In this document: piece by piece, positions 2,946 through 57,454 of the stretch
Layout of the letters: each line of letters starts with the position of its first letter
Position numbering within the stretch: position 1 is the stretch's first letter
Origin: a virus
Lineage: Duplodnaviria; Caudoviricetes
IMG/VR virus record: IMGVR_UViG_3300028653_000015
Span: 15,116-79,115 of that record
Direction: 5' to 3' (one strand)
DNA length: 64,000 nt
Notes under the pieces: model-generated
The model's database searches: none
What the model was told of the DNA's origin: nothing
The model's input: only the letters and a program-made list of their open reading frames with translations
Program-made: the position numbers and the translations under genes

Positions 2946-5900
2946 TCAGTACCACTCCGGATGTTCTTTAGGTGGCTTGCCTAGCTCGGCGGCGTAAACG
3001 ACCGCAGGAATTGGATGTAGGCCGTGTATATGGCTTCTCCATCCCTGTTGTGCTGCGCTGATCACAGTATCTGCCAAACCCTCGTGGTTGAGCTTGGCCA
3101 TCCAATCTTCCTGCATGTCTAGTGGTAGTACATTCACACCCTTGAGTATGGGCTCATGAACTATAGGCCGTTCTCCCTTAGCCATACTTCTATTCAATGA
3201 GGACACGAATGTAGTGGGCGCAAAGTCACCTCGAATGAAGTGTGTGGAAGAGCCTGCATCCTTTATCTTGGTGAGGTTAGTGAGCGCCTTGATCACTACC
3301 TCATGATTACGTCTACGAATTCCTTGACCTTTGTACATGTCATCCAGATTATCTGCCAACATGACCTGTACTGGTTCAATTCCAGTCAGAGGCAGCATCT
3401 CATGCGGGTTCACCCTACCATCTGAGATGGGCAAGCCCTTCTTGACCTCTGTACCAACTACCAAAGGCTTTTTGTCATAGACTGGTACTCCTCTAGACAG
3501 CGGGATGTAGTGCCGCTCCCCCTCTATGAGTACGTTGTGACCTCCAGCCGTATCCTTTTCTATCTTGGTTACTTTACCAGATACTGTGCTCAGTGTTGCT
3601 GAACCTGGCAAATTCTTCGGGAACAGCAACAGGTCTTGCACCTGTTCAAACTGATCAACAAGTGCCGACTTCGATGAGGCAGTACCACCAGTATGGAATG
3701 CTTTCATGGCTAGCTGTGTTGCACGTTCACCTATAGCCTGACCGGCAAGAATGCCTACGTTCAGTCCCCTCTCCGGTAGAGTTCCATTCTCCGTCAGGCC
3801 ATAGCACATCTGACACAGACCAGGTCCATGCAAACAACGCAGCGGAGATCTAACTACCACCTTACCCACATTGTTGTTCCTGAGAGCACTTCGCAACTCT
3901 GGGGTGATTAGTGTGCCTGACTTTACTATCCTGTTGCCAAGTCTGACATCTGCAGCTGTGAATCTATCTAGAATATCTTTCTCATCTACGGATAGAGCGA
4001 TCCCTTTGTTAGTACCACAGTCATGATCTAGAATGAGGTTATTCATCGTAGAGTTGATAACCTGCTTAGTGATATGACCAGGCTCTCTAACTGCCTGAAC
4101 CTTCTGAATGACACCCTTGCGACCACCACTGGTAGCTGTCCAGTAACCGGCAATGTCTAAGCCCTCAGCATAAGACTTACGTACAGGGTTGGGTATGATC
4201 TCCCCTTTATGATTGGCCATGAGCATAGGTGCAGCTCTAGTCTGTCTTACGGTGTCCGTGCCACCCTTCATACCCGTGTTGTGCAACAACATGAGATTGT
4301 TGCCCTCTTCTGGTACGGCCCTCAAGTGGGCATTTAACTCTTCTGTGGCCTTCGCATAGATCTCAATGGCTTTGGCGTCTCTAGACGGCCCTGACAACTT
4401 CTCTACTCGGGCATCCGCCTTGGCTAGTATTTGATCTCTAATTTCCCGTATAGGAGCTACGTCTTTGAGACCAACTGAAAAGGCAGTCTGAGTGGCCCAC
4501 ATGTTGCCTAGATCTTTGAGCTTGTTGATGGACTGTCCGTACTCGTTCTTGTGCTCCTTCGCGATGCGTGTCATCAGCTCTTCTTGAGCTGATGCATTTA
4601 GAGGGTCCGTCTTCCCAAGATACTCTCCCCTCATAACCTCTGGTAATGCACCAGCGACCATGAACCTGCCAACTGTAGAGTGTATACCTCCAACCTTTAT
4701 TTGGTCTGTGAGCTTTACCTCTCCCTTTCTGACCGCAGCCTCCACATCCTGAATCGTAGAGAATTCATGGCTGGTGACAGCTCCTACACGTGTGAGTCCA
4801 TACAAACCCAGCCTACTCTCTCCGGATGGGGAGTACATCAACTTACCAGTAGCGGGACTGAACAGGTTATTGGAGGGGAACATCTTGTGTGCTTCAGCCA
4901 CGGCCTCTGAGCCTACAGGTACGAAGGCACCCATAGCGTCTCCATCGAAGTCCGCATTGAAACCACTGGTGACTAGTGGGTGGATTTGAACAGCCTTTCC
5001 ACCGACAATACGGGGCTTGAATGCTTGGATACCATACTTGTGAAGCACGGGGTCTCGCTTCAGGAGTATTGGCCTACTGAGGATGACCCTATCTAAAGCT
5101 CGGTCTACTATCTCCCCACCCTCTTGCATTTTCTGCTGTGCCTGCAGAGGAGAGATGCCCATCAAATTTCGTAGTTCTCGAATCACGAAAGGCTTGTACA
5201 GTTCTAGAGCTGCAGACTTTGGTATTCCAACCTCATCTAGGCTGAGTGAGGGCTCTGGGACAATCGTTCCACGCATAGTCATATCCTGTTTGCGTGTGAC
5301 CAATTGCTCCTGGAAGAATCCCTCCTTTGGAGGGCCCACCTTGGCACCAGTACTGGGATCTACACGCTTGCCGGCAATGTAGTCCAAGATGCCTCTACGA
5401 ATACCACGTGGGTAGCTGCCTATGCCCGCCAGCGCACGCAAACCATCATACACTTCTTGTCTCAGCTCCACCTTAGACTGATCATCGTCCGGTATGAGCG
5501 GGGACATTTTTGCGTATCTGGATGCAGTCAGATGCAGATTCTTGTACAGACCATTCAAGTCATCTTCACTTATAGTACCGTTTGGAAGGATGGGCAAAGG
5601 ACGCATGGATGGGGGAAGTACTGGCACACTCTGCATCATGTATGCATCACGGGGGCTGACACCGATCTTATCCAGCACCTTCAAAAACTTGACCCGTTTG
5701 TTTACGTCGTCTAGGTAGGACCCCTTGAGTGTTGGCTTCTGCAACTTATCCAAGGCAGCAACCAGGTCCTTCTTCACATTTATCTTTCCTAGTAGTGCAG
5801 CAAAAGCCTTACCACCCACTAGACCGCCCTTAATCTTCAGCGGGTCACCATACTTACCTGTAATGGGATCATAGGCTAGTGTACCTGCGATCAGTCCATC

Positions 5901-8900
5901 ATACTGATTAGTCTTGAGTCCAGTCAGCTTTACTATGGCTCCCTCAAATACTGGATTCGGGAATGCTTCTGGCAATACGAAGTGACTCCACTTATCCCCC
6001 TCCATACCACCTGTAATCTTCTGATCGAATAGACCACCTGGCTCAGGCCGCATGGTTTTAGCAACAGTCATCTTAGATGGATCTTTGAGCTCACCGTTGC
6101 TCATCTCGTGGACTTGCTTATCTGTCATAGGAGAAAGCGTCAGACTGTTTCCAGTCTTCTCTACATTCACATTCAGACCTTTGATCAGACTGATGAACTT
6201 GTTGTACGCAAATGTAGGCTTTGGGGTAGGGAGCAGTTCTCCTGCTTGTAAAGCAGCCCAAAATTGATCTCCTTGGCCTGCATCACTCTTCAATGTATTC
6301 ATCTCGCGAAGGTTTGCTGTAGCTCCGTGAGCAAGCATAGAGTACAGACCCAACACTCCTAGAGACTGAGCGCCATGTGGACCACCGCCTTTGGGTATCT
6401 TGTTCCTATCGTAGGCGTACCCATAACCCAGGGCTCGAGCACTGAGTTTCTTTTCTACCTGGTGGTGCAATTTGAGGACATGCATAGGCCCTACTAGTGC
6501 ATCTCCCATAGGTCTTCCGTTACTAGGATCGTAGACAGTTTCCTTATCCGTCAAGCCATGCTTAGCCAAATCCTGTGTAACCTGGGCATGTAAGTCTGCG
6601 CCTGGTTTGAAGTTCTTGGTAAAGTATGTCTTGCCTGTCTTTTCCGCAATCTTACCTGCAGCAACCTCCAACACCTGCCCTAGGTTGGTTCTACCAGTAA
6701 CACCCAATGGGTTTAAGATCACATCTATGGGCCTACCATCTTTGGTATGTGGCGCCTCATGGTCAGGTATGATCTTAGTAATGATGCCCTTGTTACCGTG
6801 GCGGCCTGTGATCTTGTCTCCAATCTCTAGAGTCTCTTCTGTCTTCACGTGAACGGCAACATTATGACCAGTCTTAACGACCTCTTTCACAACCCCTGGG
6901 TAGTCGTTGTCCCATGTAACACTGGCATCCTTAAATGGCCGTACAATCGACTTGTGCAGTTTGGATAGCTGCACATCCTCCCGCTTCTCTGACTCATTTG
7001 AAGCGCGTAGAGCAGCTATGAGAGTGTCACCAGGCATAACCACCGTGCCAGGCTTGATAACCCCCTCGTCATCAAGCTTCTCAGCTTGGGCTCTATTCAT
7101 ACCAGTGGGTATGTACGCCTGGAACTTACGCTTATCTAGGACGTGAGCCACATCCCTCTCGATTGAGTGCCTGTGTAAATGCTCTGACGTGAGCTTCTTA
7201 GCGGCACTCTCCGTAACTACAATACCATCTTCGTAGTTGTACCCCTTGTATGGCATGAACCCAACACGAAGATTGGTACCCAAAGCCAACACACCGTTCT
7301 TGGTGTAGTTGGTGTCGGCCACCGTCTGCCCAGCCGTTACCTTATCTCCCACCTTTACTATGGGTGTGGAGTGTAGAAAGGCTTTGTCCTCATTCAACGG
7401 AAAGTGATCATAAATCTGAACTTCGTGCCTCTTCCCATCTGCGCCTTTAATAACTACAGCATCTGATTTGATCTGAGCAACAGTGCCACTATCACGAGTA
7501 TGGTGACTAGCAAAGCCTCCAACAAAGTGATCGAAGCTATGTACACCTGCCAAACTCTGTACAAGTGGGGCCTCTCTGTGCAGTAGAGAGACTGATTGCT
7601 CCATTTGCCGACCGGCCATTGTACTTCTGTTCGGGTGGTCAGCTGGCATGAAAGGGATGAGGTTCGATGCAAACGAGAACATTTGCATCGGGTCCTTCAT
7701 TACATAGTCCGCACTCTTTATGGAGCCGTCATAGATCTCATTCTCAAGACCACTGATCTTTATGGAGGGTCCTATGGGTACTGGTTTGCCTTCTACCCAC
7801 TTGACTTGGTCTGGAAGGACTACATGAGACCTGTAGGCAACTGTTGGGTTGACGTCCTCAGTCTTACCAGTATGTAGATTGTACATACGGATGGTGACAT
7901 CATGGCCGTTCTTGGTAACACCTATGGGCAGTCGTAGAGTGATGCCAGTCTCCTTGCCCTCTGGTGTGTGTATGGGATCCAGGTAGCCCAAATGGGACGG
8001 GTCTATCAGCTTCGCTTCATCAGAGACTGTGTGCTCGCTCTTGATACCACCATCTCCTGTGATGGTGGTCTTGAATTGAGCAGAGATCATTTCAAGAGGA
8101 TTGGTCTGGCTTGGTACTGAAGACAAAGAGTTCTTGGAGAACAGCTGCCGTATATGTCTATTGAAGATGTCCGGAGCTATGATGTCTCTGACCTTGTCCT
8201 TCTTGTCTACCGTATTTCCGATCTTACGTAAGATGTCTCTAGAGCCTCGAGTTATTCTCTCAGCTGCAAAGTCCTCCATCGAGTGAAGGTCCTTGAACAT
8301 GATGGCGTCTCTAGGATCTGGCTTGGCCTCTCCACGAGAAATCTTGAGCAACTTGACGGAAGCATCTAGTAGCGTAGCACCAGTCACGTTGGAGTGTGGC
8401 TTACCCAACGTGAGCATGTTGACGTCTGGATTCATCTTGGTGTTATCCATGACTTGCCAGAAGTGAGCACGCATATCCTCTGAAGTCATGATGGACGCGG
8501 GCTTGAGGCCCGTATCAGACTTGTAGAACTTAGCCAACGCCTTGGGCATGTCTGCGTGATTGGCAGCCGCAATATCCTTACCCCACCTCTTCTCTACCTC
8601 CTCTTCCGGCATTCCCATAGCATGGAGTAAAGGCTTGAGAGGTATGTTGGAGTTACCATACCCCATAGAGAACTCACGAGTAGCTGGGTCAAAGTGGATC
8701 TTGAAACCACCTCCTGGTGCATTGAAGTGCGATTCTAATGCACCGTCAGCCTTGATCATATTGTATACGCCAGGCTTCAAACGCCACTGGTTATCTACTT
8801 GGTACTCCTGACCATCAACTATGCTGCTGTATCGGTTAGTGATCTTAGGCAAGCTCATTAGCTTGATCTTCTGCCTATCTATCACCTTACCCGTAGCATT

Positions 8901-9125
8901 GTCCTTCAAAGAGACCGTAGCCTCCACCGGTACCGCCCACGACTTACCCTCAAGTTTGGCCTCCTTCTGAGACCTGAAGTCACCGCTATCCAGGTTGTCC
9001 CTGACAGCTACGTCGTGAAGCTCTAGCGTGTTCTTCTTCCCTACTATCGGGAAGAGACCGCTGACTGCATTTTGTACTCGGTCTTTGAGGAGATCAAACC
9101 CCTCTGCCGGGACAATACGTGCCAC
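2946..9125 (-). CDS. DNA-directed RNA polymerase, fused beta-beta' single chain
   Basis: Beta motifs: HTPEG, GYNYEDGI, GDKITGRHGNKG, LNPLGVTGRTNLGQ, KLHHQVEKK. Beta' motifs: PVLPPSMRP, LKRDPVLH, NADFDGD, RSPLRC..CQMCYG, GERATQLAMKAFHTGG. GTG start with AGGAG. Confidence 0.95.
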   Translation of the reverse strand: MARIVPAEGFDLLKDRVQNAVSGLFPIVGKKNTLELHDVAVRDNLDSGDFRSQKEAKLEGKSWAVPVEATVSLKDNATGKVIDRQKIKLMSLPKITNRYSSIVDGQEYQVDNQWRLKPGVYNMIKADGALESHFNAPGGGFKIHFDPATREFSMGYGNSNIPLKPLLHAMGMPEEEVEKRWGKDIAAANHADMPKALAKFYKSDTGLKPASIMTSEDMRAHFWQVMDNTKMNPDVNMLTLGKPHSNVTGATLLDASVKLLKISRGEAKPDPRDAIMFKDLHSMEDFAAERITRGSRDILRKIGNTVDKKDKVRDIIAPDIFNRHIRQLFSKNSLSSVPSQTNPLEMISAQFKTTITGDGGIKSEHTVSDEAKLIDPSHLGYLDPIHTPEGKETGITLRLPIGVTKNGHDVTIRMYNLHTGKTEDVNPTVAYRSHVVLPDQVKWVEGKPVPIGPSIKISGLENEIYDGSIKSADYVMKDPMQMFSFASNLIPFMPADHPNRSTMAGRQMEQSVSLLHREAPLVQSLAGVHSFDHFVGGFASHHTRDSGTVAQIKSDAVVIKGADGKRHEVQIYDHFPLNEDKAFLHSTPIVKVGDKVTAGQTVADTNYTKNGVLALGTNLRVGFMPYKGYNYEDGIVVTESAAKKLTSEHLHRHSIERDVAHVLDKRKFQAYIPTGMNRAQAEKLDDEGVIKPGTVVMPGDTLIAALRASNESEKREDVQLSKLHKSIVRPFKDASVTWDNDYPGVVKEVVKTGHNVAVHVKTEETLEIGDKITGRHGNKGIITKIIPDHEAPHTKDGRPIDVILNPLGVTGRTNLGQVLEVAAGKIAEKTGKTYFTKNFKPGADLHAQVTQDLAKHGLTDKETVYDPSNGRPMGDALVGPMHVLKLHHQVEKKLSARALGYGYAYDRNKIPKGGGPHGAQSLGVLGLYSMLAHGATANLREMNTLKSDAGQGDQFWAALQAGELLPTPKPTFAYNKFISLIKGLNVNVEKTGNSLTLSPMTDKQVHEMSNGELKDPSKMTVAKTMRPEPGGLFDQKITGGMEGDKWSHFVLPEAFPNPVFEGAIVKLTGLKTNQYDGLIAGTLAYDPITGKYGDPLKIKGGLVGGKAFAALLGKINVKKDLVAALDKLQKPTLKGSYLDDVNKRVKFLKVLDKIGVSPRDAYMMQSVPVLPPSMRPLPILPNGTISEDDLNGLYKNLHLTASRYAKMSPLIPDDDQSKVELRQEVYDGLRALAGIGSYPRGIRRGILDYIAGKRVDPSTGAKVGPPKEGFFQEQLVTRKQDMTMRGTIVPEPSLSLDEVGIPKSAALELYKPFVIRELRNLMGISPLQAQQKMQEGGEIVDRALDRVILSRPILLKRDPVLHKYGIQAFKPRIVGGKAVQIHPLVTSGFNADFDGDAMGAFVPVGSEAVAEAHKMFPSNNLFSPATGKLMYSPSGESRLGLYGLTRVGAVTSHEFSTIQDVEAAVRKGEVKLTDQIKVGGIHSTVGRFMVAGALPEVMRGEYLGKTDPLNASAQEELMTRIAKEHKNEYGQSINKLKDLGNMWATQTAFSVGLKDVAPIREIRDQILAKADARVEKLSGPSRDAKAIEIYAKATEELNAHLRAVPEEGNNLMLLHNTGMKGGTDTVRQTRAAPMLMANHKGEIIPNPVRKSYAEGLDIAGYWTATSGGRKGVIQKVQAVREPGHITKQVINSTMNNLILDHDCGTNKGIALSVDEKDILDRFTAADVRLGNRIVKSGTLITPELRSALRNNNVGKVVVRSPLRCLHGPGLCQMCYGLTENGTLPERGLNVGILAGQAIGERATQLAMKAFHTGGTASSKSALVDQFEQVQDLLLFPKNLPGSATLSTVSGKVTKIEKDTAGGHNVLIEGERHYIPLSRGVPVYDKKPLVVGTEVKKGLPISDGRVNPHEMLPLTGIEPVQVMLADNLDDMYKGQGIRRRNHEVVIKALTNLTKIKDAGSSTHFIRGDFAPTTFVSSLNRSMAKGERPIVHEPILKGVNVLPLDMQEDWMAKLNHEGLADTVISAAQQGWRSHIHGLHPIPAVVYAAELGKPPKEHPEWY

Positions 9126-9190
9126 GAATCTCTCCTAAATGTGTGTTGTTACCCCACCAAACTACCAGAGATACCCGACTGGTGGGTATG

Positions 9191-9217
9191 AAATTGTAAG
9201 TCGGTAAGCGTTATAAG
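9191..9217 (+). promoter_or_regulatory. Putative phage promoter AAA-N18-TATAAG
   Basis: One of five copies upstream of plus-strand units. Followed by the hairpin CAGAAGTAA-7nt-TTACTTCTG (9225-9249). Confidence 0.55.
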
Positions 9218-9489
9218 GATAGTACAGAAGTAAGATAACTTTACTTCTGGCTGTGTCTAAGGTTGACACAGAGGCAACACCTAAGTACAGGGGTTATGTT
9301 TAGATGCCTGAGTCCGACCACCAAGAAACCAGTGGACCTATGGATGATCTCAAGGACAGCCTTTTCGATGAGATCGAAGGTGGAAAAGAGGAGAACTACT
9401 CCGATGCAGGTCAAGACGAGAAATGATTTGGCACTTTGTCTTCAGCCTTTTGGCGGCATATATGACAGTACTAATGATCCCCAGGAAAC

Positions 9490-13372: not shown

Positions 13373-14235
13373 GACAACAACAGCAACTGTTCCTTGAGTT
13401 GCTTGTTCCTTAAAGCTTGATAATCCCACGCAACCTTCAGTTTGGCTACCTGTATATCGACGGGGTTCTCCTCCAGCGTCAGACCCTCTGGGGTGCGTAT
13501 TATTTCCCTGTACTTCTGCTGCACCTCTGTGATCATATCTGAGGACTCAAGACCCCTATCACTAAGGTATCTATTGATCTCGCTTTGACAGAACGCTATA
13601 GGGTGTGGTGCGTACATAACATTCTCGTCCAGCACGCTGGCAGCTACAAAACTTTGTGTCTCAAGTACAAATGCCTCACCAGACCTAACCATCTCCGCCG
13701 CATCCACACTGTTGAAGAGCTGTGCGATAGATGGCTTCTGAAGTACCTGCCAATCTGGAATGTTGTTGTTAAGTGCCTGTGTTATCCAACAGAACACTTC
13801 CCAGTTTGTCCAGTACATCTGCCCTATGTGCAGGGTCTTAATCGCTTGAATCTTTGCCTTCGCATGATCTGATATAGATGGTACGTGGAAATCTTCTTTG
13901 ATCTCTTTCCACAGAGTCTCCGATTCCCACTCAAACCAGTCTGTTCCGTACTTACGCAACAGTGCCACGTCAAACACCACAGGATGAGAATCGTGGTGCA
14001 CAAACAGATTCTTAGTTGTGACTGGAGTGGACTTCTTGTTCTGAATGTCTCCCACCATCACAGGAGGAAGACTGGCTACGTCGTTAAGAGTCAGAACGGG
14101 CTTAGTCTTGTCAGTAGTTTCAACCACCAGGTCTGCATCGAGGACAGCGGGTTCACCGGCATCTACGAAGAGAGATGGCTTCTGCTGGCCGACTTTTTCA
14201 AGTACGGCCAGCAGATCTGATTCGTGATCAGCCAT
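13369..14235 (-). CDS. Hypothetical protein in the head gene cluster
   Basis: 288-aa ORF translationally coupled to the downstream gene. Confidence 0.75.
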
Positions 14236-17370: not shown

Positions 17371-17412
17371 TTGACACAATGCAATTAGACGCAGTCTAAT
17401 TGCAGCGCATCA
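17371..17412 (+). promoter_or_regulatory. 42-bp element: TTGACA-N18-TCTAAT overlapped by a perfect 11-3-11 palindrome
   Basis: TGCAATTAGAC-GCA-GTCTAATTGCA at 17380-17404. A 40/42 identical inverted copy lies at 54489-54530. Confidence 0.7.
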
Positions 17413-30649: not shown

Positions 30650-31976
30650 GACACCAGTCAAGAAGCCTACGTACACAGGGCCTGTGTACGTAGACCCCAA
30701 TTCTATCCCGCGAGCTGATGCAAATGAGCTTCTGGATGTTCTCCAAGCCACGCTTGGCGGCGATGGTGTAATCCTGCAGCAGGGTATAGAGGTAGAAGGT
30801 CGCTTAGATCTAAGACGACCAAGTGGAATCACCCAACTAGATATCGCGTGTGGTGGTGGTCTGCCAGCTGGTGGACTTTCTCAGATAGATGGGGCTGATG
30901 GGGTGGGAAAGAACCTGCTGATGAACTACTACTTTGCCAAGCAGCAGTCCATTCATGGAGCCGCCACCAACCTGGCCATGGTGTGCCTAGAGAGTGGTTA
31001 TGACAAGCTGTTTGGCAGGGCGGTAGGAGTCAAGGTAGCACTATCTCCATACGAGATTGAGGCAGAGGGCAGGCGTAGGCGCATGAAGGGAGAGCCTGAG
31101 CTCACAGTTGAGGAAGTAGCAGAGCTACAGTCTCAGGTAGGCAACTTCCACATCTTCCGTGGTGCCGCATCAGAAAAGATACTGGAGGCTGTGGTGCACT
31201 GTGTGTCATCCAACTCCTATCAGATCATAGGCATTGACTCTTGGGATGCCATGCTCACCGCAGCAGAGGAGGGTAAGGAGCTCGAGGACAACGCGAAAGT
31301 AGCCGATGCTTCGGGTATACAGACTAGATGGATGCGCAAGGTGTTTGGTGCCTTATCTCCCCAAAAGATCTGCCCGGACTGCTTTGGTAGGCCACTGGGA
31401 TTCAAGCAGTATGGCAAAGGGAACTTCGACTACATCTGCCCAGAAAGCAAGTGCGGTTGGAAGGGTAAGAAACCCTACATGTGGGAGAACGAAACTACCC
31501 TCATAGGCATTCGGCAGATACGCGCCAACCTGAATAAGATGGGCATGCATGCTCGGGAGTACAAAGTCGGAGGTGCATATGCTCTTCGTCACGGCAAGAT
31601 GATCGATATTGCCCTCAGGCGAGGCAAACCGATAGAGCTCAGCAATAACAACATCGGAAAAGAGATCAACTGGGAGCTTACAAAGGGCAAGGCAGGTACA
31701 CACGAGGGTCTGAAAGGAGCATACGAATACTACTACGCTCCGCCAGGCATCGACCTGTCTTCAGATCTAGTCAACTACTGCTCGGCCAACAACATCATCC
31801 AGTATGGTGGACCAAAGGTTGGGTTCTACGTGACGTCTATGGATGGTAGTGAACAGGTTAAGTTGGGGACCAAGGAAGAGATGCAAAGGCGGGTAGAGGA
31901 AGACAAAGACATTGAGCACCTTCTTCGTGTTCTCAGCTTCAGAGAGGCCGGGCTAGGGAGAGTGCGGTTCAAGTGA
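30633..31976 (+). CDS. RecA-like recombinase with Zn-ribbon insertion
   Basis: PSGITQLDIACGGGLPAG, GADGVGKN, IIGIDS, IRQIR, GGAYALRH, TKGK. Confidence 0.88.
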   Translation: MPKPSKTPVKKPTYTGPVYVDPNSIPRADANELLDVLQATLGGDGVILQQGIEVEGRLDLRRPSGITQLDIACGGGLPAGGLSQIDGADGVGKNLLMNYYFAKQQSIHGAATNLAMVCLESGYDKLFGRAVGVKVALSPYEIEAEGRRRRMKGEPELTVEEVAELQSQVGNFHIFRGAASEKILEAVVHCVSSNSYQIIGIDSWDAMLTAAEEGKELEDNAKVADASGIQTRWMRKVFGALSPQKICPDCFGRPLGFKQYGKGNFDYICPESKCGWKGKKPYMWENETTLIGIRQIRANLNKMGMHAREYKVGGAYALRHGKMIDIALRRGKPIELSNNNIGKEINWELTKGKAGTHEGLKGAYEYYYAPPGIDLSSDLVNYCSANNIIQYGGPKVGFYVTSMDGSEQVKLGTKEEMQRRVEEDKDIEHLLRVLSFREAGLGRVRFK

Positions 31977-33383: not shown

Positions 33384-34012
33384 TCAGACCTGGTGTAGAG
33401 CTAGTATCCTGCTCTACAAATCCAGAGAAATTGATCGAGCGTATGGGAAGAATTTGCTACAAGAGTGAGGACATGATCACAGAAGATTCTGCCCCCAAGT
33501 TCATCAGAATGATCATGCAGCGGGGTCATGAATCTGTACTAGAGCATGCCGTTGCTAGCTTCATCATCACAACAGACCGTGGGGTTACCCACGAAATAGT
33601 ACGGCACAGGCTTGCTAGCTACTCTCAGGAGAGCACAAGATACTGTAACTTCTCGCAGGATCGTTTCGGGGGAGAGATTACTGTTATCGAACCACCCGGT
33701 CTAGGTGAAAGTATGGCTTGGGGTTTCTGGCATAGCGCTGTAGCAGTAGCTGAAGCCCAGTACTTAGCGATGCTCAATGAAGGCATGTCACCACAGATTG
33801 CTCGATCTGTTCTTCCGAATTGCCTGAAGTCTGACATAGGGATGACAGCGAACTTTCGAGAGTGGCGTCACTTCCTCAAGCTGAGGACTAGCCCAGCAGC
33901 ACATCCGCAGATGAGAGAAATAGCGAATCTGATAGCACAAATACTATGCGTCCTGTCTGCAACATGCTTCGGGGAATTCTTGGAGAAGACTGATGCCAAT
34001 ACTGGAGGCTAA
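33374..34012 (+). CDS. thyX: Flavin-dependent thymidylate synthase
   Basis: GHESVLEH, RHRLASYSQESTRY, ARSVLP, NFREWRHF..LR...AAHPQ. Confidence 0.95.
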   Translation: MRIIRPGVELVSCSTNPEKLIERMGRICYKSEDMITEDSAPKFIRMIMQRGHESVLEHAVASFIITTDRGVTHEIVRHRLASYSQESTRYCNFSQDRFGGEITVIEPPGLGESMAWGFWHSAVAVAEAQYLAMLNEGMSPQIARSVLPNCLKSDIGMTANFREWRHFLKLRTSPAAHPQMREIANLIAQILCVLSATCFGEFLEKTDANTGG

Positions 34013-34616
34013 CTACGAACAAGGCATGGCTGCCTATGAACAAGCAGCCGACAAGGGTGATGCGGAACTGATCAAGATGGGCTTCCCTAGGTCCCAAAGA
34101 CCTATGGTAACTGTCGAGGGTGTGCAGCAGTTCGCAGATAGACCTACCCTACCTGAACGTCTCAGCGACTTGTCGATGTCAGACCTGCAGGACTTGCTTG
34201 GCTGGTTCACTGCCTGGCACTCGTATGCTGTGGAGCAGGTACCTCCAATGCGCATCATGAGAAACACAACAGAAGCTGCTCGCGACTTTGCGTGGGCTAA
34301 GATCCGAAAAGAAAAGAAGGGTACAGTATCTGATAAGAACGATAACACCCGTACGGATATGAGGTACGTCCAGGCAAACACCGCCTATGAGACCTCAGAC
34401 TACATGTACAATATGATCAAGGCCATAACAGATGGCCTGTACAGAGAGATTGAAACCATATCCAGAGCCATCTCAGGACTGGAACAAAAATTCGGTGCAG
34501 AAGGACATCGTTTTTCAGGAGAGCGTCGCGGTGTTGGTGCACACTCTGGCCCCTCCTTCAAAACACCGTTCAAAGCTGATGTCATGGCACGATTCCGTAC
34601 AGGGACCAAGCGATGA
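33993..34616 (+). CDS. Hypothetical helical protein, possibly UvsY-like
   Basis: Long helical pattern within the recombination cluster. The UvsY resemblance is weak. Confidence 0.55.
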   Translation: MPILEANYEQGMAAYEQAADKGDAELIKMGFPRSQRPMVTVEGVQQFADRPTLPERLSDLSMSDLQDLLGWFTAWHSYAVEQVPPMRIMRNTTEAARDFAWAKIRKEKKGTVSDKNDNTRTDMRYVQANTAYETSDYMYNMIKAITDGLYREIETISRAISGLEQKFGAEGHRFSGERRGVGAHSGPSFKTPFKADVMARFRTGTKR

Positions 34617-35122
34617 GCTTGGTGATCCCAAAATCGAAGAAAGTGCAAGAGGTTAGACATGTAGCAGGACTACATGTGTGGGTACCCTTCCTGCCGCCAT
34701 CCTCAAATGGCATCTACGTGAACATACCGGGCCACGGTAGAACTCTATCTACCCAGGCTCGGGCGTTCAAGGTGAAGGCCATGCGAGAGATTCAACAGAA
34801 AGGTAGGGTGGCCTTTCTGCAACTGAAACCCAATGTACCCTACCAACTGAACCTCACAGTATTCTTCGATCATATTGAAATCAAAAAATCAGCAAAGGGA
34901 AACAGGTACATAGTTAGAGACTTGAGCAACGTAGTGAAGTTGATAGAAGACACGGTGTCAGAGGCAGTAGGGATAGGAGATGAGCACAACTTCAGACTGG
35001 TTCTAGAGAAGCACTGTGATCCTGAGAACCCCGGTATGTATGTAGACCTAATTCAAATATCTGAGAAGAGTGTAGGTCTGACAAAGAAGGAGTACGATCT
35101 TGGTCACACCACTAGTACCTAA
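34613..35122 (+). CDS. RusA-like Holliday junction resolvase
   Basis: PPSSNGIY, RDLSNVVKLIEDTV, GIGDE. Confidence 0.78.
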   Translation: MSLVIPKSKKVQEVRHVAGLHVWVPFLPPSSNGIYVNIPGHGRTLSTQARAFKVKAMREIQQKGRVAFLQLKPNVPYQLNLTVFFDHIEIKKSAKGNRYIVRDLSNVVKLIEDTVSEAVGIGDEHNFRLVLEKHCDPENPGMYVDLIQISEKSVGLTKKEYDLGHTTST

Positions 35123-40964: not shown

Positions 40965-41672
40965 CTAGAATTCTAGATCCCAGCGGAACTCGAGTGAAAC
41001 TGTAGGTGTCTTGGTTATGGGTGCGAAGTTGTTGTAGGCAATGATACGCTGCCTATTAGCATCCCCTATGTATGGAGGGGTGCTGTAGTCATAGACGGCA
41101 CCTGTTACCTGAGACATGACTTGGTCTGAGAGTACCATACCAACCTCACTAATGGGTATGGCTGGATACGCGCCTCCGAGATGCAAGTCTGTCTGCTGTA
41201 GAGTCACTTGAAACTCTACCACTGACGAAATCCCATTCAACTGTGCTGGAAATGCCGGAGGTATGATATCCAGCTGCTGCCCCCATACCCCCATAGATGT
41301 GTGGCTTGGTGGGTTATCTGGAGTTCCTGATACCATCACTGGCCTCTCCAGGTACAGTGTTTCGTGGGTACCCTTATCGTAGGTGTTACCGCCTGGATAA
41401 ACTTGATCTAGTGTGGGGTAGAAACTGGAGATGTTTACTGTCTGCTTGTTTCCGCCGATCCCAAATGTAAAGTACTGAACCCAGTTTGGACATACCGGTC
41501 CTGTAACATCCCCAGAAAGAATAGCCGAAGGAGATATCACTCTAGGAAGATACCATCTTCCTAGATTTACCCAGATGTTGTGACTCTCCCTGCACATGCT
41601 CGGTACCCTCTTACCACGCTCGTACGCGGTGATGAACATGTTCGATTTTGCTTGTATACGATCAGTAAACAT
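40965..41672 (-). CDS. Baseplate- or tail-associated protein
   Basis: ESHN.WVNLG, ISEVG and F.PITKT....LEFRW resemble fibre-attachment domains. ATG 41672 has a GAGG RBS. Confidence 0.6.
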   Translation of the reverse strand: MFTDRIQAKSNMFITAYERGKRVPSMCRESHNIWVNLGRWYLPRVISPSAILSGDVTGPVCPNWVQYFTFGIGGNKQTVNISSFYPTLDQVYPGGNTYDKGTHETLYLERPVMVSGTPDNPPSHTSMGVWGQQLDIIPPAFPAQLNGISSVVEFQVTLQQTDLHLGGAYPAIPISEVGMVLSDQVMSQVTGAVYDYSTPPYIGDANRQRIIAYNNFAPITKTPTVSLEFRWDLEF

Positions 41673-52386: not shown

Positions 52387-52444
52387 AATAGTAGATCAAG
52401 AGAAGCAATTCTCTTTGTCTAACCCCGAAACAAAGGAGAACCCT

Positions 52445-53320
52445 ATGAAATCTACACTGCTTGCCCTCTCCGTCATCCTGCTTGGATGCGACATAGACCC
52501 CTACGGTATAACCCCAGCCAACACTCAACCAGACACCCAGGCAGTCTCTGCCCCGGATACCAGCCTTCCAAAGACTGATACCCAGTCCTCTTCCATGACT
52601 GTCACCAGCACTGATACGCATACCGTCTCGGAGACGGTCACTACTACCAGTGTCACCACCAAGACTGAAACCACTCCTGATGCTGGAACTCCTGACTCTC
52701 TCCCTCCGCAGATTACTCCTGATGCCCTGGTCCAGGTTGCTCAGCCTGATGCTCTTCCAGTGGCCCAGGACACTCTCCCGGCAGCTCAGGATACCCTTCC
52801 GCAAGTCACTCCAGACACTCTTCCTGCCCAGCAGCCTGATGCTCTGCCGATGACTGTGGATGCCAAACCAGCTACTCCAGACACTATGGTCCTGGTGGAC
52901 ACCAAGCCGGCCACTCCTGATGTTCTTCCCGCGATTGATACAAAGCCGGCGGAAGACAGCAAGCCAGTCACTACTGATACCCTGACTACAGCACCAGATA
53001 CAGTCCCGGCGGGAAAGGCGTGTGGTGGGGATGGTCAGTCGTGTTGTATCACACAGGCTGTAGACAGGGCTGACGCATGGATTCACACTTGTGTGGATTC
53101 AGTCAAGGGCACATTCGATTGCACTATCAACCTGAGCATTGGAACAACACCTGGGCCCAGTGGTACATGCATGACCTGCGGGTACAGAGGGTATCCTGGT
53201 TGTACACACTTGAACCTTGGGATGTTCTCTTGGAAGTGGGGAGACATACCAGGTGCATTTTGTGATCATGACTACAACCAAATCCCAGTGTATTCTGGGG
53301 ATGTGGGTGTCTGTCCATGA
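52445..53320 (+). CDS. Lipoprotein with T/P/D-rich repeats and Cys-rich C-terminal domain
   Basis: AAGGAG RBS. MKSTLLALSVILLG-C lipobox, D(A/T)LP repeats, CGGDGQSCC. Confidence 0.8.
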   Translation: MKSTLLALSVILLGCDIDPYGITPANTQPDTQAVSAPDTSLPKTDTQSSSMTVTSTDTHTVSETVTTTSVTTKTETTPDAGTPDSLPPQITPDALVQVAQPDALPVAQDTLPAAQDTLPQVTPDTLPAQQPDALPMTVDAKPATPDTMVLVDTKPATPDVLPAIDTKPAEDSKPVTTDTLTTAPDTVPAGKACGGDGQSCCITQAVDRADAWIHTCVDSVKGTFDCTINLSIGTTPGPSGTCMTCGYRGYPGCTHLNLGMFSWKWGDIPGAFCDHDYNQIPVYSGDVGVCP

Positions 53321-53334
53321 TCTGAAGTTCTACT

Positions 53335-53361
53335 CCCTCCGCCCATCAGTAGGGCGGAGGG
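53335..53361 (+). terminator. Terminator-like hairpin
   Basis: CCCTCCGCCC-ATCAGTA-GGGCGGAGGG after the lipoprotein stop. Confidence 0.65.
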
Positions 53362-53399
53362 TAGGTCAATCTGATCTCATTTAGCCCCAACTCACCACA

Positions 53400-53427
53400 G
53401 CAAAAGGGGGCAATAGGCTGGTATAAA
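53400..53427 (+). promoter_or_regulatory. Putative phage promoter GCAAA-N17-TATAAA
   Basis: Motif variant followed by the hairpin GCTAGG-GAGTA-CCTAGC. Confidence 0.55.
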
Positions 53428-53459
53428 GATCATATCTAAGCTAGGGAGTACCTAGCCAA

Positions 53460-53486
53460 AATTGCATCACAAATTGTGATGCAATT
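53460..53486. promoter_or_regulatory. Perfect 27-bp palindrome, operator-like
   Basis: AATTGCATCACA-AAT-TGTGATGCAATT lies between the promoter motif and the start codon. Confidence 0.7.
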
Positions 53487-53518
53487 ATCAACCAGGCAGA
53501 ATCAGGAGAAGAGCACTA

Positions 53519-54130
53519 ATGAAGTTTCACATGTATACGGGATTCAACCTAAGCTACCCAGTGTTGGAAATTGATGGTGAAGTATATGGCACCATCCAAA
53601 GTGTGGCGGGAGAACTGGGCGTTTCTGCAGCTGTGATCCGCAATGCAATGCATAGGCACAAAGACCTATTCCCATCAAACAAGTGCGTAACAGATTGTTA
53701 CGCACTTACGTTCCTACAAGAGTTGCCCGAACATGGCAGGGAATTTGGGTTAAAGAACCTAAAGGGAAATGTACGATTGCTACCGAAAAAAGAAATGCGC
53801 CAAGCAGCCAGACTTGTACACTCCAAAAAGGCACGCGAATACCAAGAGAAACTGGACGAAGTTATTGAGGCACACTGGAGTCTGAATACCGTACCCAAAG
53901 AAGTGTTTGAACAGGAGCATGCCCTTCGGATAGAGGCTGAAGAGCAAGCTGCACAAGCGGAAGAAGACAGAGCTGAGATGCGGAGGGAGTTGTGCTCAGT
54001 AAGGGGTGAACTCTCAGATCTACGGAACGAGTTGTATGATGCAGCACCATATCTCAAAGAGACTGCAAGTGCTGCTGGCAAGTTACTCCAAGCCCAAAAG
54101 GGTACCAAGAGCGTAAGAAGCACCAACTGA
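53519..54130 (+). CDS. Putative DNA-binding regulator (ORF6N/Bro-N/antirepressor-like N-terminus plus coiled coil)
   Basis: VLEIDGEVYGTIQSVAGELGVS..VIRNA..RH...F, later SKKAREYQ, then a coiled coil. AGGAG RBS. Confidence 0.65.
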   Translation: MKFHMYTGFNLSYPVLEIDGEVYGTIQSVAGELGVSAAVIRNAMHRHKDLFPSNKCVTDCYALTFLQELPEHGREFGLKNLKGNVRLLPKKEMRQAARLVHSKKAREYQEKLDEVIEAHWSLNTVPKEVFEQEHALRIEAEEQAAQAEEDRAEMRRELCSVRGELSDLRNELYDAAPYLKETASAAGKLLQAQKGTKSVRSTN

Positions 54131-54134
54131 CCAA

Positions 54135-54285
54135 AGAGTTTCGAGCTGATGAGTATTAGAACATCATCCACAGTCCAAAGCCGCGAACTGTCTCTAAGCC
54201 TCTTTAGTCCAAACTCTCCCTTTCGATCTTTGAGAAACTCCTTACTATCAGTATTCCTGATAGTAAGAAATGACAGTCGGTACAA
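54135..54285 (-). pseudogene. Inverted fragment of a paralog of the 53519-54130 gene
   Basis: LTIRNTDSKEFLKDRKGEFGLKRLRDSSRLW aligns by eye with KCVTDCYALTFLQELPEHGREFGLKNLKGNVRLL. An in-frame stop lies just upstream (54289-54291). Confidence 0.65.
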
Positions 54286-54422
54286 AGCTCAATTGGGAGA
54301 GATTCGACGTCTTACGAATCGTAAGACGTTGGAGCCGAGAACTTGAAGCTCGAGGACGAAGAGAACTTAGGAAAGCACTGCAAGAGGGAAGACCGTACAT
54401 TCCTACCGTAAGCGCTAACTGA
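54270..54422 (+). CDS. Possible 50-aa basic protein
   Basis: MTVGTKLNWERFDVLRIVRRWSRELEARGRRELRKALQEGRPYIPTVSAN. Weak RBS. Confidence 0.3.
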   Translation: MTVGTKLNWERFDVLRIVRRWSRELEARGRRELRKALQEGRPYIPTVSAN

Positions 54423-54451
54423 TCTCAATGTCACAAATTGTGACATTGGGG

Positions 54452-54481
54452 AGAAAAGAGGGTAGCTACCCTCTTTTCTTT
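54452..54481. terminator. Bidirectional terminator
   Basis: AGAAAAGAGGGTAG/CTACCCTCTTTTCT perfect inverted repeat between convergent genes. Confidence 0.8.
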
Positions 54482-54488
54482 AGCCAAA

Positions 54489-54530
54489 TGATGCGTTGCA
54501 ATTAGACTGCGTCTAATTGCACTGTGTCAA
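54489..54530 (-). repeat. Second, inverted copy of the 42-bp TTGACA/palindrome element
   Basis: The reverse complement matches 17371-17412 at 40/42 positions. Confidence 0.85.
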
Positions 54531-57454
54531 CCTAGAGATGTCTTGGTGTAGTTTGCAGGAACACTGGGGTCTGAGGCATCAGGTACTGGCGCATTTCCGA
54601 TCAAACTGATATTCTCGTCCTTGTCTCCGTCACTGTAGTCATAGTTGGCATTGGTGGTAGTGGAAGAGGACTGGAGTGAGGTATCATCCATAGTGTTGTT
54701 TGACTTTGAAACCGCCAGATCATTTTGGGCCAGAGACCTCATAGTCTTCAGCATGTTTGCTCCGCTGGCTGCTTCATCTTTGTCATAGCCAAAGAAGCTG
54801 ACCAGGTCTCCATCCATCAGAGTATTGTAGGCTCTATCAAAACCGCGCTCCTGGAGCATCTTGATGGCAGCATCAATCCTGGGGCTGGTACGGGCCACAA
54901 ACTTGGTCAGGGCATCACGAAGCTGTGGAAGTATTTGTAAGTAGCCTGGTCTATGATCTGTAGCTAGAGGCCATGTACCATCCTGCCAAGCAGCATTGAT
55001 CTGACCTTGGGAAGGATTGGTATTCACCAGTAGTGGGTTCATCACCCTATCCAACTCTTGAATATCCTTGCTGTACTTGCTTCCGGCCACTGCTGTTTGC
55101 CAGGCAGTCATGTCCTCTACGAACTGCTTGTAGGCAATGAAGTCAGCACTGATGATGGAGAAGGTCTGCGGGTCAGTAGAAGCTGGAGGTAATTCCTGTC
55201 CCTCTCCTTCCGCCGACATCTCTAGCTGTGTAGGGTTGCCTTTGGGGTCAAGAGTAAATGAGGCTACTGTACAGGTATAGGAGCCAACTACTATTCGATC
55301 TCCTATCTCTACATCCGCCAGAGAGAAGTCCTGTGAAGCTCCAGACTTCTTCACCATGAAGCCAGTAGTTGTTCCTCCGGCTATTCCTACAGATAAGCCT
55401 AGAACACTGTTGGCTGAGGCATCTCTGATGTCTATGGCTGTAGTCAGGTCCGCAGCCTTTGACTCCAGCTCTACTGTTTCCCGAACTACTGACCAGCTTA
55501 TGCCCGGTGCACCGGGCATAAGGTAAGACTCGATAGTGACATCTATATAGATTTGGTCATAGATGCCATAGTTGTAAATGGCATCTATCCTATAGTAGCC
55601 TGCATTGGTCCCGTTCAAAACGTAGAGCATATCTCCGGAATGGCTATCTAGATTAGGTATCAATCCAGCGGGTACTCGGAAGACGTTAGAACCTAGGGCA
55701 GTACCTGTATTGCCACGTGCAAACGTCTGTACAACAGCAATTGCCTTCAACTTGCCTATACTATTGATCTTATCTACTACATCCGCAGCTGTTACATCCA
55801 AGCGCTCATCCGACTGTCCCTCAAAGAACCCTAGAGTTGCATATGCCCGCAGTATTATGTCCTTTTCGGTATACTTGGCTGTCATAGTGATGGACCGTGC
55901 CCCATTGCCATTGTTCACTATATTGATCGTAGTTGGGGTATTGCCAGCACTATATGGGATGCTTATGGCTGCAAACCAGGCATTCAGTTGGGTTGCGATG
56001 TAGAGAGGAGAGCCTGTAGTTAAGGCCGGAGACAGGTTTCCATCAATCTCTATGAGGTTATTGGCATTCACACCAGTGTTCGATGGGTTACCTGTGAATC
56101 CCAGAGGAGTGGTGTAAGGTTCGGTTGCTGGATTGAACTCTCCAACCATAAGGGTGTGTACCCCAGCATTGATGCAGGTGAACTGCACATGACCTGAGCC
56201 ATCATCGGCCACATTCACCAAGGTAGACAGTGGGACACTGCTTGCATTCTGAAGGTTCTGCAGGAATGGGAGGAGGGTAGGCAGGTCATATGTACCAGCT
56301 GGTATAGGGCCTGAGAACGGAACACTATCCACAGCCACTTCGAACACACAACCTGGGACATCTGGAATGGTGAATGGAGCCACTCCTCCGCCAATCAAGG
56401 TAGCTGCAGTAGCATCATGTAGGTCATAGGTTGTTGCTGTTCCCATACTCTCCACACTAGGCTGAGTAGGTACTGGGATGGTGTAGGTTGTGGGAGCATT
56501 CCCATCTTCAGCTATCACCAACTGATCGTTTATGCCGGTTGTAATAGCCCAAGGTGCTGACCTAGAGCACATAACAGCTGCTGGGCCCAGAGTACCTGAG
56601 GGGCCTGGTGGAACCAGGTATCCGGCCACAGCAGGTGTTGTATTTGTGGCTACAGCCGACTGCATTCGTGGGGCCAGTGGGTCCCTCGTCGCAGACAGAT
56701 TATTGACTACAGCTTGACCTGCAGTGATACGGAGATAGGCATCCTTTGTCAGGGCTATCTTCTGGTTCTGGGTAGTGGTTGGGTCCTCAAAGGACTTCTG
56801 AAGACTGATCAAATCTGCTCGTGCTTGAATGAGTGATTCCTGAAGGGCTATGGCCTGTAGATTCAAGCTCTTGAATTGCCCTCCGCCGGCTAGAGGAAGG
56901 ATAGTCATCAGCTGTGCAGCCCAGGCCAGTATGTCAGTGTACATGGGTGCCAGGCTAGCTAGGTCTGACTTGGCGGCTACCTGGGCAGCCTGTGGTGGTC
57001 TTACTATGGCTCCGTTCTTCCTGATATTCGGTGCCAGTGTGGCTTTGACGAAGTTGTCTACAGCCTTGTTGTACTGCCCTAGGGGCTTTGCACTTACTGC
57101 TGCATTCTGGGTCAAGATGTTGTTAGTTGTCAGTAGTGCGGCAGCTGCATTTCCAAGCTGTCCTGTGTTGGTGATGGGGGTAGACGTGTTGGACATCTCC
57201 TGAATGGCTTTGTCGATGTCTTGAACCAGGTCTATTGCCTGCCGGACTTCTGCACACAGTTTGTTGGTAGCCAGATAGATGAGATAATAGATCGAATTGG
57301 GGTCTAAGATCAGAGTAGCTGAGAAGAGCTGGAGTGTCTCTTCATACTTGGCCGACACGTCTGTAGGCCCAAGTGCATCCTTTGTAACCGTGATGCTGCT
57401 CTTGATGAACTTAGAGACGGCAGCTGATATCTCATCCTGAGTGTAGTTAGCCAT
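54527..57454 (-). CDS. Large virion structural protein
   Basis: 975 aa with helical termini and a beta-rich middle resembling segments of the baseplate proteins. Confidence 0.75.
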   Translation of the reverse strand: MANYTQDEISAAVSKFIKSSITVTKDALGPTDVSAKYEETLQLFSATLILDPNSIYYLIYLATNKLCAEVRQAIDLVQDIDKAIQEMSNTSTPITNTGQLGNAAAALLTTNNILTQNAAVSAKPLGQYNKAVDNFVKATLAPNIRKNGAIVRPPQAAQVAAKSDLASLAPMYTDILAWAAQLMTILPLAGGGQFKSLNLQAIALQESLIQARADLISLQKSFEDPTTTQNQKIALTKDAYLRITAGQAVVNNLSATRDPLAPRMQSAVATNTTPAVAGYLVPPGPSGTLGPAAVMCSRSAPWAITTGINDQLVIAEDGNAPTTYTIPVPTQPSVESMGTATTYDLHDATAATLIGGGVAPFTIPDVPGCVFEVAVDSVPFSGPIPAGTYDLPTLLPFLQNLQNASSVPLSTLVNVADDGSGHVQFTCINAGVHTLMVGEFNPATEPYTTPLGFTGNPSNTGVNANNLIEIDGNLSPALTTGSPLYIATQLNAWFAAISIPYSAGNTPTTINIVNNGNGARSITMTAKYTEKDIILRAYATLGFFEGQSDERLDVTAADVVDKINSIGKLKAIAVVQTFARGNTGTALGSNVFRVPAGLIPNLDSHSGDMLYVLNGTNAGYYRIDAIYNYGIYDQIYIDVTIESYLMPGAPGISWSVVRETVELESKAADLTTAIDIRDASANSVLGLSVGIAGGTTTGFMVKKSGASQDFSLADVEIGDRIVVGSYTCTVASFTLDPKGNPTQLEMSAEGEGQELPPASTDPQTFSIISADFIAYKQFVEDMTAWQTAVAGSKYSKDIQELDRVMNPLLVNTNPSQGQINAAWQDGTWPLATDHRPGYLQILPQLRDALTKFVARTSPRIDAAIKMLQERGFDRAYNTLMDGDLVSFFGYDKDEAASGANMLKTMRSLAQNDLAVSKSNNTMDDTSLQSSSTTTNANYDYSDGDKDENISLIGNAPVPDASDPSVPANYTKTSLG

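Follow-up and report, generated by a model that had tools for sequence, protein, structure and literature searches.

The lambda O/ori and BstA-aba systems already provide examples of sites located within the very gene whose product binds them, and these are the closest precedents for the locus described here: a phage gene (53519-54130, + strand) with a 27-nt palindrome inside its coding sequence and further palindromes around it. The gene lies in a stretch of 64,000 nucleotides (the window) that comprises bases 15116-79115 of a single 79,115-bp virus record of a tailed phage (IMG/VR record IMGVR_UViG_3300028653_000015). BstA is described as a prophage-encoded abortive-infection protein that contains a KilA-N domain and has a cognate DNA element, anti-BstA (aba), which is 63 bp long, allele-specific, and spans 29 bp upstream plus the first 34 bp of the bstA open reading frame (ORF) (bioRxiv 10.1101/2020.07.13.199331). 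The likeness is that of a KilA-N-type phage protein whose own coding sequence is overlapped by a short, allele-specific DNA element in cis, so that both travel together. Unlike aba, which has terminal direct repeats and stands at the 5' end of the gene, the element in the window is a 27-bp palindrome at codons 55-63; and unlike BstA, a larger protein with a second domain, the protein in the window falls outside the BstA model. In lambda, the binding sites of O likewise lie within the protein's own coding sequence, in a stretch that tolerates variation; they consist of four 19-bp iterons with an A+T-rich segment (PMC4488673), whereas the gene in the window has one internal site and no direct-repeat array. 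A further difference is that the module was found at four places in five relatives, which would be odd for an origin of replication.

Internal auxiliary operators, such as lac O2 within lacZ and gal OI within galE, cooperate with an upstream operator by looping. Internal and upstream sites are combined here as well, 221 bp apart in the window and 225 bp apart in its relative L001; the lac and gal operators, however, lie in the regulated gene and not in that of the regulator itself, and are not known to be kept as covarying palindromes throughout a family of proteins. Rickettsia palindromic elements are selfish in-frame insertions of 100-150 bp at many unrelated sites, and share with the present element that they are translated palindromic DNA with copies both in genes and between genes. 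The present element, in contrast, measures 27 bp and occupies one homologous position throughout the family, which indicates that it is old and has been inherited with the gene. Template switching at quasipalindromes, finally, is reported to change both repeat arms together, also in coding DNA (PMC8604942, PMC13100816, PMC7202029); it is a mutational process and not a function, and would leave unexplained the family signature that we found in untranslated copies. A literature search recovered no paper on a covarying palindrome inside a KilA-N/Bro-N gene, which is not proof of absence. Nor did we find a description of a covarying palindrome that is shared by a whole family and sets a 'protein motif' in a KilA-N-like domain, with stray copies and relics around a mobile module.

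A palindrome that dictates a protein motif

The internal palindrome (53681-53707) has 12-bp arms and a 3-nt GAT centre, is centred on the middle base of codon D59 and encodes residues K55-L63 (KCVTDCYAL). Its place inside the gene, with the centre as a codon, had been recognised in an earlier note made from the letters of the window, which proposed that the palindrome is both a binding or recombination site and a variable part of the protein. Its double nature, as an element of nucleic acid and as a variable part of the protein, holds family-wide and with covariation: the 27-nt symmetric element dictates the peptide motif, and it is the symmetry of the DNA, not the peptide, that has been kept by evolution.

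The family was collected via a word-index search, which gave 4 relatives, and a HMMER search with the profile of these, which gave 140 representatives at E ≤ 0.001, mostly 160-220 aa long and less than 50% identical to each other. For 124 of 141 proteins we determined whether the residues at equal distance on either side of the central residue (-d and +d) could be encoded by reverse-complementary codons; the other 17 were dropped because they were outside 100-260 aa, had no residue in the centre column or were centred too near an end. Compatible pairs were found in 84, 91, 96 and 74 of the 124 proteins at distances of 1, 2, 3 and 4 codons, respectively, where the maxima reached in 1000 column shuffles were 58, 48, 83 and 53. 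The compatible share at the motif centre (60-77%) compares to 15-19% at other centres of the same proteins, and compatibility was at background from 5 codons outward as well as at centres shifted by one residue or more. At least three of the four pairs were compatible in 85/124 proteins (null 2.1%) and all four in 40/124 (null 0.11%).

The letters of the K55-L63 motif vary widely among the members (KCVTDCYAL, LSVGESNAK, LRYDEIVSK, NCVTDSDAI and others), with 26, 27, 11 and 13 different compatible pair types at distances 1 to 4. Position -3 is S, R or C in 97/124 proteins (41, 38 and 18, respectively); these residues are chemically unrelated and alternate because all three share the codon form NGC opposite the alanine (GCN) at +3. 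As a guard against shared ancestry, a tree was built without the nine motif residues and 43 sister pairs were taken from it. Both sides had changed in 104 of the 172 pair-cells, and in 45 of these the pair was compatible in both sisters, whereas cross-pairing between sisters (left residue of the one, right residue of the other) was compatible in 44/208 cases. Covariation with so varied a peptide argues that the DNA symmetry is maintained and that the peptide follows. The protein 'motif' is in this sense the shadow of a DNA palindrome, and cis-elements can hide in domain alignments and shape protein sequence.

Family DNA was read in five distinct gene copies and one relic. A metagenome scan gave four loci and a search with a sub-alignment (A5) one locus in viral contigs and none in genome contigs; a second sub-alignment (A4) gave none in viral contigs and none in genome contigs, and a single-protein search none in viral contigs. 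The loci with a family gene are referred to as L001-L005, of which L005 comes from a complete 190-kb phage; G001 is a complete 190-kb relative. All six DNA copies are centred on the same codon. With the copy in the window (12 of 13 pairs) as the reference, the palindrome of L001 consists of the same 27 nt (12/13), in a protein that is 92% identical over the matched 168 residues and 84% over the full length. As the earlier note had anticipated, homologs carry a palindrome of other sequence at the same position: L004, whose protein is 28% identical, has 12/13 pairs in wholly different arms (ACC/GGT versus GTA/TAC in the window), and L003 (53% identical) has 9/13 pairs with a perfect core of 7-bp arms (ATG/CAT). 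The relic in the window has 12/13 pairs with perfect 11-bp arms, and in L005 only 6/13 pairs remain, with just the outer GCGT/ACGC left. Between the genes of the window and L001, 61 of 488 nt differ, mostly at third positions. The 92 nt at 53621-53712 show no difference between the window and L001/L002 and end 5 nt after the internal palindrome (P ~5e-5 for an even spread); this tract reflects either a wider constraint or a recent conversion tract that ends at the palindrome.

Palindromes around the gene and signs of mobility

The complete 79,115-bp record contains 26, 16 and 14 perfect palindromes (loop ≤ 5) with arms of at least 9, 10 and 11 bp, respectively, where thirty order-2 Markov shuffles of the record gave means of 1.9, 0.3 and 0.07 (maxima 4, 2 and 1). 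The excess, for which a comparison with shuffled sequence had been named beforehand, is far beyond chance, and 7 of the 14 palindromes with arms of at least 11 bp fall within the 1,062 bp of 53460-54521. Other long perfect palindromes (arms 10-13) occur outside the + strand island that holds the locus, at 30667-30693, 41541-41565 and 55497-55522 of the window and at 9190-9211 and 13509-13531 of the genome; three of them sit in unrelated protein-coding genes and none is of the family type.

All six palindromes that the earlier note had listed for the locus were found in their places. Upstream, 53460-53486 (13-bp arms, 1-nt centre; in-frame reading NCITNCDAI) has its centre 46 nt before the ATG and 221 bp from that of the internal copy. 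Downstream stand 54241-54267 (- strand, 11-bp arms, 5-nt centre, reading LTIRNTDSK), which is the motif palindrome of a gene relic and whose innermost pair is indeed mismatched on exact reading; the stand-alone palindromes 54307-54329 (11-bp arms, 1-nt centre, AAT) and 54426-54448 (11-bp arms, 1-nt centre, core TCACAAATTGTGA in common with 53460, reading NVTNCDI); and 54497-54521 (11-bp arms, 3-nt centre). The 3-nt centres ascribed to all six thus apply to 53681 and 54497, the exact centres being 1 nt at 53460, 54307 and 54426 and 5 nt at 54241, whereas the centred peptide readings (NCITNCDAI etc.) were correct. A seventh palindrome (54452-54479) is a G+C-rich hairpin with 14-bp arms and no loop, followed by TTTCTTTAGCC (a T-rich run), and is likely the terminator of the module; a G+C-rich hairpin plus T run also follows the family gene in L003 and L004. 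The centre-to-centre spacing of the palindromes is irregular (221, 560, 64, 119, 29 and 43 bp), and a CRISPR-like array was rejected for this reason.

We scored the palindromes with a position matrix of the nine motif columns of the family, in the centred frames of both strands, against 20,000 random perfect palindromes (95th percentile 3.3, 99th percentile 7.2, maximum 15.8). The untranslated 53460 copy is the closest to the family consensus, with a score (19.1) above that of all random palindromes. It is followed by the internal copy at 53681 (15.4), a palindrome downstream in L005 (14.2), one upstream in L001 (13.8), the first downstream palindrome of L003 (10.3), 54241 (8.3, P=0.005), 54426 (6.3, P=0.015), one upstream in L003 (5.6) and 54307 (5.5, P=0.02). 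Background scores (-13.9 to -1.1) were obtained for the terminators, for the 54497/17380 twins and for seven further palindromes of this genome. Five of the six palindromes therefore belong to a single family of elements that occurs both inside and outside coding sequence; the sixth (54497), which had been grouped with them, scores at background and belongs to a separate 42-nt unit. Since non-coding palindromes carry the family signature, the constraint acts on nucleic acid without a need to code, and every locus with flanking DNA has at least one family-type palindrome within ~100 nt of the gene. That the arm differences between 53460 and 53681 are symmetric, read previously as a sign that palindromy is being preserved, follows by definition from two perfect palindromes, and it is the relatives that give the argument weight. 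Contigs of four metagenome runs (X4, X6, X8 and X10) were compared, in which regions without cover are uninformative. In one contig of run X4, 53460 is replaced by a different palindrome with at least 12/13 pairs, in which the outer arms are the same and the inner arms and centre have changed on both sides (its right arm was taken from a loose-end consensus and its left arm was not read in every letter).

The region directly upstream of this palindrome (53398-53459, + strand) is conserved with L003 (112-174, blastn 82.5%) and contains TGGTATAAA at 53419-53427 and an inverted repeat, GCTAGG-N5-CCTAGC, at 53440-53456. The TGGTATAAA segment resembles an extended -10 element and may act as a promoter; a sigma-70 scan of the region, which needs a -35 element, found no promoter. 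The homology with L003 stops exactly at 53459, and L003 is without the 53460 palindrome (an indel of ~29 bp).

Behind the gene, on the - strand and antisense to it, lies a relic of a second, P0044-like family gene (54151-54279; profile positions 51-93; six-frame hmmsearch E 3e-10), of which 129 nt, or 43 codons, are still attached to their palindrome and which is nearly identical to P0044 over RLSFLT...VLILI. An antisense ORF of 195 aa (53698-54285, - strand) starts with the paralog relic (~43 residues), covers the entire 3' part of the intact gene and terminates within the internal palindrome; it is probably not a gene. An inversion between the 53681 and 54241 palindromes would read into this ORF. 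A further ORF, 54270-54422, was likewise rejected as a gene, since it shares sequence with the relic and with two palindromes and gave no credible match to any family. In L004 (76-190) a stump of a window-like gene is found, with ~18 N-terminal codons joined to a stretch like residues near 118-133 and then a stop. It stands directly before an intact, different paralog, and we regard it as a second case of a family gene displacing another.

The four places at which the family gene stands in the five relatives differ in their neighbours. L001 and L002 have a 733-bp insert of palindrome plus gene between the homologs of 33993-34616 and 34613-35122, which abut in the replication block of the window; in L003 the gene is in tandem with, and not divergent from, the homolog of a 118-aa gene; and in L005 it lies, together with a lipoprotein gene, between the homologs of a 1458-aa and a 216-aa gene. 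The gene in the window is itself a mosaic, with an N-terminal part that is closest to L001 and a last ~130 nt closest to L003. Judging from these comparisons, palindromes are gained, lost and altered as units, and the gene behaves like a module that is mobile among related large phages, with its own upstream region and predicted terminator.

The encoded protein and possible roles of the palindrome

The 203-aa protein comprises a KilA-N/Bro-N-like domain (residues 1 to ~122), a long helix (127-195) and a conserved C-terminal tail. It has no Pfam match below E 0.07, none to the KilA-N, Bro-N, ORF6N or Rha families, and no PHROG match. Among 53 family members, three match Pfam Bro-N (best E 1.5e-4) and two ORF6N (best E 9.9e-5), and the atlas neighbours of the family are Ant, Rha, ORF6N and Bro-N clusters. 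The AlphaFold2 model (53-row alignment, mean pLDDT 94.1) consists of three strands, helices 26-33 and 37-46, short helices in 57-75, a strand at 86-89, helices up to 119 and one helix 127-195. A Foldseek comparison to viral models (BFVD) gave almost exclusively KilA-N, Bro-N, 'repressor domain' and antirepressor proteins, at a probability of 0.97-1.00 and with E-values of only 1.2e-3 or weaker. Among solved structures, residues 1-122 matched the Dachshund DHD (VIA-align Z 8.0), the DdrC N-domain (Z 7.8) and a Ski-like domain (Z 7.5), with the program's warning that a Z near 8 may reflect a common arrangement; the residues beyond the N-domain compare to solved structures as a generic long helix. 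In the model the N-domain thus has a KilA-N/Bro-N/Dachshund-type winged-helix fold, with strands that precede a helix-turn-helix-like pair and a wing, and is joined to a 69-residue helix. The ORF6N/Bro-N/Rha type to which the earlier note had pointed was right at the level of fold, and the family is an unnamed, distant branch of the KilA-N/Bro-N-like proteins. A tblastn search with four family proteins found it absent from 50,697 GenBank phage records, and blastn of 4 kb around the locus gave no match among GenBank phages; the family is known only from metagenomes. Eight long proteins (P0022, P0030, P0083, P0089, P0117, P0132, P0133 and P0137; 302-1168 aa) match only the first 30-50 profile positions, three to eight times each, as tandem arrays of the N-terminal strand-helix module. 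A small terminase with an internal pac site and a partition site were rejected, as fold and context are unsuited to either, and so was a Cys-x3-Cys metal site, the cysteines being the codon partners of Thr and Ala.

We favour, with some reserve, the reading in which the encoded protein recognises the palindrome as its cognate DNA site, linked to its gene for self-recognition or autoregulation; within this reading, autoregulation is likelier than immunity. The KilA-N/Bro-N-like DNA-binding domain would be joined to the long helix as a putative dimerising coiled coil, and each palindrome would be bound by a dimer of the protein. The 53460 and 53681 sites together could then let the protein repress its own transcription, by roadblock or looping, and the site inside the gene would make protein and site inseparable when the module moves between phages; the differing downstream palindromes would be sites left by displaced paralogs. 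Should the palindrome be the protein's own site, the module would constitute a compact, portable protein-plus-site pair with allele-specific recognition, and a natural system for the co-evolution of DNA-binding specificity and target; it may then also join BstA-aba as a second case in which a KilA-N protein recognises its own phage by a DNA tag within its gene. In line with this reading, GCRTMA-N7-TKAYGC occurs without mismatch in the 64 kb only at 53464 and 53685, and in L001, which has the same DNA-binding domain, a different upstream palindrome, 225 bp from the internal one, also fits it. In addition, all perfect arms are strictly Watson-Crick, with no G-U pair inside, and G-U rescue among the incompatible pairs of the family shows no excess on the sense strand over the antisense strand, which favours duplex DNA, or a hairpin that is needed on both strands.

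Several observations weigh against a cognate site. Because the three or four sites that fit GCRTMA-N7-TKAYGC are also those from which it was derived, the argument based on it is partly circular. The internal palindrome has decayed in G001 (6/13 pairs) and 39/124 family members have no more than two compatible pairs, which argues that the element is dispensable. G001 moreover has two palindromes with arms of at least 10 bp versus 0-4 in ten shuffles, i.e. no excess, and the flanking palindromes of L003 and L004 are unlike the internal one of the same locus. The palindrome at 30667-30693, in the UvsX-like gene, has changed from G:C to A:T on both arms in L001, where its inner arms have decayed; perfect palindromes in unrelated genes together with this compensatory change argue that a general palindrome-perfecting process may act. 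Finally, the innermost codon pair covaries like the outer ones (84/124 versus a shuffle maximum of 58), and as a dimer site needs no palindromic centre, this favours a hairpin or cruciform, as may the finding that three stems gain length through G-U pairs on what is presumably the sense strand (+ for 54307 and 54426, - for 54241; the 54307 RNA stem on the + strand gains 4 more pairs when G-U is allowed).

The last two points would suit palindromes that matter by their structure only, as RNA hairpins (in processing, stability or pausing) or as DNA hairpins or cruciforms (a replication or recombination signal), read by factors of the host or other factors of the phage, which we consider rather unlikely. 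Symmetry would keep a hairpin in transcripts of either strand, and the module is indeed found in both orientations with respect to its neighbours; the predicted folding energies range from -13 to -19 kcal/mol for all palindromes (z -4 to -7), and each copy is located within the presumed transcript of the module, in its 5' leader, ORF or 3' trailer. Against such a role speak the strict arms and the lack of a strand-specific G-U enrichment in the family, the lack of a significant RNA structure of wider extent about the internal palindrome (z -1.4), a search of Rfam 15 that gave only two matches (E 0.58 and 0.69), far below gathering scores, and the non-coding 53460 copy, which is at the sequence consensus of the family and not just any hairpin. 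Improbable in our estimate is a self-immunity like that of BstA and aba, in which the palindrome would be a name-tag in warfare between phages: the protein would attack and shut down replicating phage DNA that lacks the cognate palindrome, the copy in the gene would spare its carrier, and the variant palindromes would be immunity sites collected against rival alleles. If true, a tag inside the gene would make cheating impossible, the neighbouring palindromes would be stolen tags, and the conflict would drive a fast symmetric turnover of the arms. Between close relatives the arms do turn over rapidly and symmetrically; the module, mobile and moron-like, has a lipoprotein gene as its neighbour in two phages; and the relic has kept its palindrome while most of its gene is gone. 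BstA itself combines a KilA-N domain with an allele-specific, DNA-based element that overlaps its own ORF. Three of the 53 family members give weak hits to the PADLOC model of BstA (best E 8.6e-4), probably via the common N-domain, and four match PDC-S05, a candidate defence family. The window protein, in contrast, has no match to the BstA model (E ≤ 0.1), nor do the six frames of the record at E ≤ 1; at 203 aa it is shorter than the 292-position model and without the second domain, and aba, which lies at the start of its gene, has terminal direct repeats and no palindrome. BstA moreover serves prophages, and no integrase was found in the partial record or in the complete G001.

A process of the kind suggested by the 30667 palindrome could also suffice by itself, if the palindromes were perpetuated without function by template switching that copies arm onto arm, with the clustered copies as debris of repeated gene replacement and the palindromes as hot spots of breakage and recombination. 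Homogenisation of arms by template switching is described in the reports cited above, relics stand beside intact family genes in both the window and L004, the homology with L003 breaks off exactly at the edge of 53460, and the 92-nt tract identical in L001 does so 5 nt after the internal palindrome. Yet the position is kept in 85/124 members of a family with less than 50% identity, at the cost of two sets of codons; the non-coding copies keep the family signature and not symmetry alone; G001 shows no such drive; and useless DNA is rarely kept in phage genomes, all of which makes this explanation quite improbable. Programmed exchange or inversion, by which recombination at palindrome centres would swap cassettes and so diversify the protein, had been put forward in the earlier note as one of two outcomes and fares worse. 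The antisense relic begins ~12 nt from its palindrome, so that inverting the segment from 53681 to 54241 would join both genes in frame at the motif; the mosaic gene, too, could be read as the product of an exchange. However, the relic amounts to only 43 codons, the break points of the mosaic (~54006) lie away from the palindrome, the contigs of the four runs, from which rare forms are lost, showed no joint of an inversion or swap, and neither the record (CheckV completeness 43%) nor the complete G001 gave a match to a serine or tyrosine recombinase (Resolvase, Phage_integrase, E ≤ 0.1), so that we regard such a system as very improbable indeed. Scarcely credible, finally, is that conservation concerns the peptide motif and that its fit to a palindrome is incidental. 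The frequent residues A(+3), V(-2) and L(-4) could by themselves account for some complementarity; the column shuffles, which keep the residue frequencies, nevertheless never reached the observed pairing, the residues S, R and C at -3 have the NGC codon form and no chemistry in common, and the shuffles, the 45 independent double changes and the existence of untranslated copies together exclude such a by-product.

Genomic setting and other repeats

The + strand of the record holds a replication block (helicases, primase, family-A polymerase, UvsX-like recombinase, resolvase and Cas4-like nuclease) and the - strand the large structural genes, inside which the palindrome locus lies in the only + strand island. 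The island contains, in this order, a predicted lipoprotein gene (52415-53320, + strand), the family gene and ~400 nt without a convincing gene, and abuts the stop of a 975-aa gene on the - strand; the G+C content of 2-kb windows around the locus is 0.48-0.51. The lipoprotein call was made from a signal peptide with lipobox LLGC (including the lipobox Cys), a Thr/Pro-rich linker and a Cys-rich end; the protein has no Pfam or PHROG match, and a hairpin (53335-53361) stands after its gene. In the 190-kb relative L005, a predicted lipoprotein (1062-1847; Thr/Pro- or Thr/Gly-rich linker) likewise precedes the family gene, and in both phages the two genes lie antisense within tail/baseplate genes. 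This layout is reminiscent of the receptor-blocking lipoproteins of lytic phages.

The palindrome at 54497-54521 is part of a 42-nt unit (54489-54530, - strand) in which it is flanked by TTGACACAR and RCGCATCA. The unit has a twin ahead of a helicase gene (17371-17412, + strand) and a partial third copy near 9250-9272 (+ strand), and its copies stand at operon boundaries. An exact search for the 54497/17380 palindrome in viral contigs gave no hits. The bin of the unit reached a depth of 32.2 in run X4 and 12.2 in run X6, several times that of its neighbours (~7 and ~4), and the loose ends to either side of it differed, showing many different flanks. We consider it a widespread, regulatory-looking repeat of this phage group that is separate from the family palindromes; it could serve the group as a terminator or as a promoter combined with an operator. 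Elsewhere in the window (2946-9125, - strand), a single ORF of 2059 aa matches several PHROGs of RNA polymerase beta subunits with different parts (best E 2.1e-30), as well as two large families of unknown function (E 3e-115 and 7.5e-84), and may encode a fused phage RNA polymerase of the multisubunit type.

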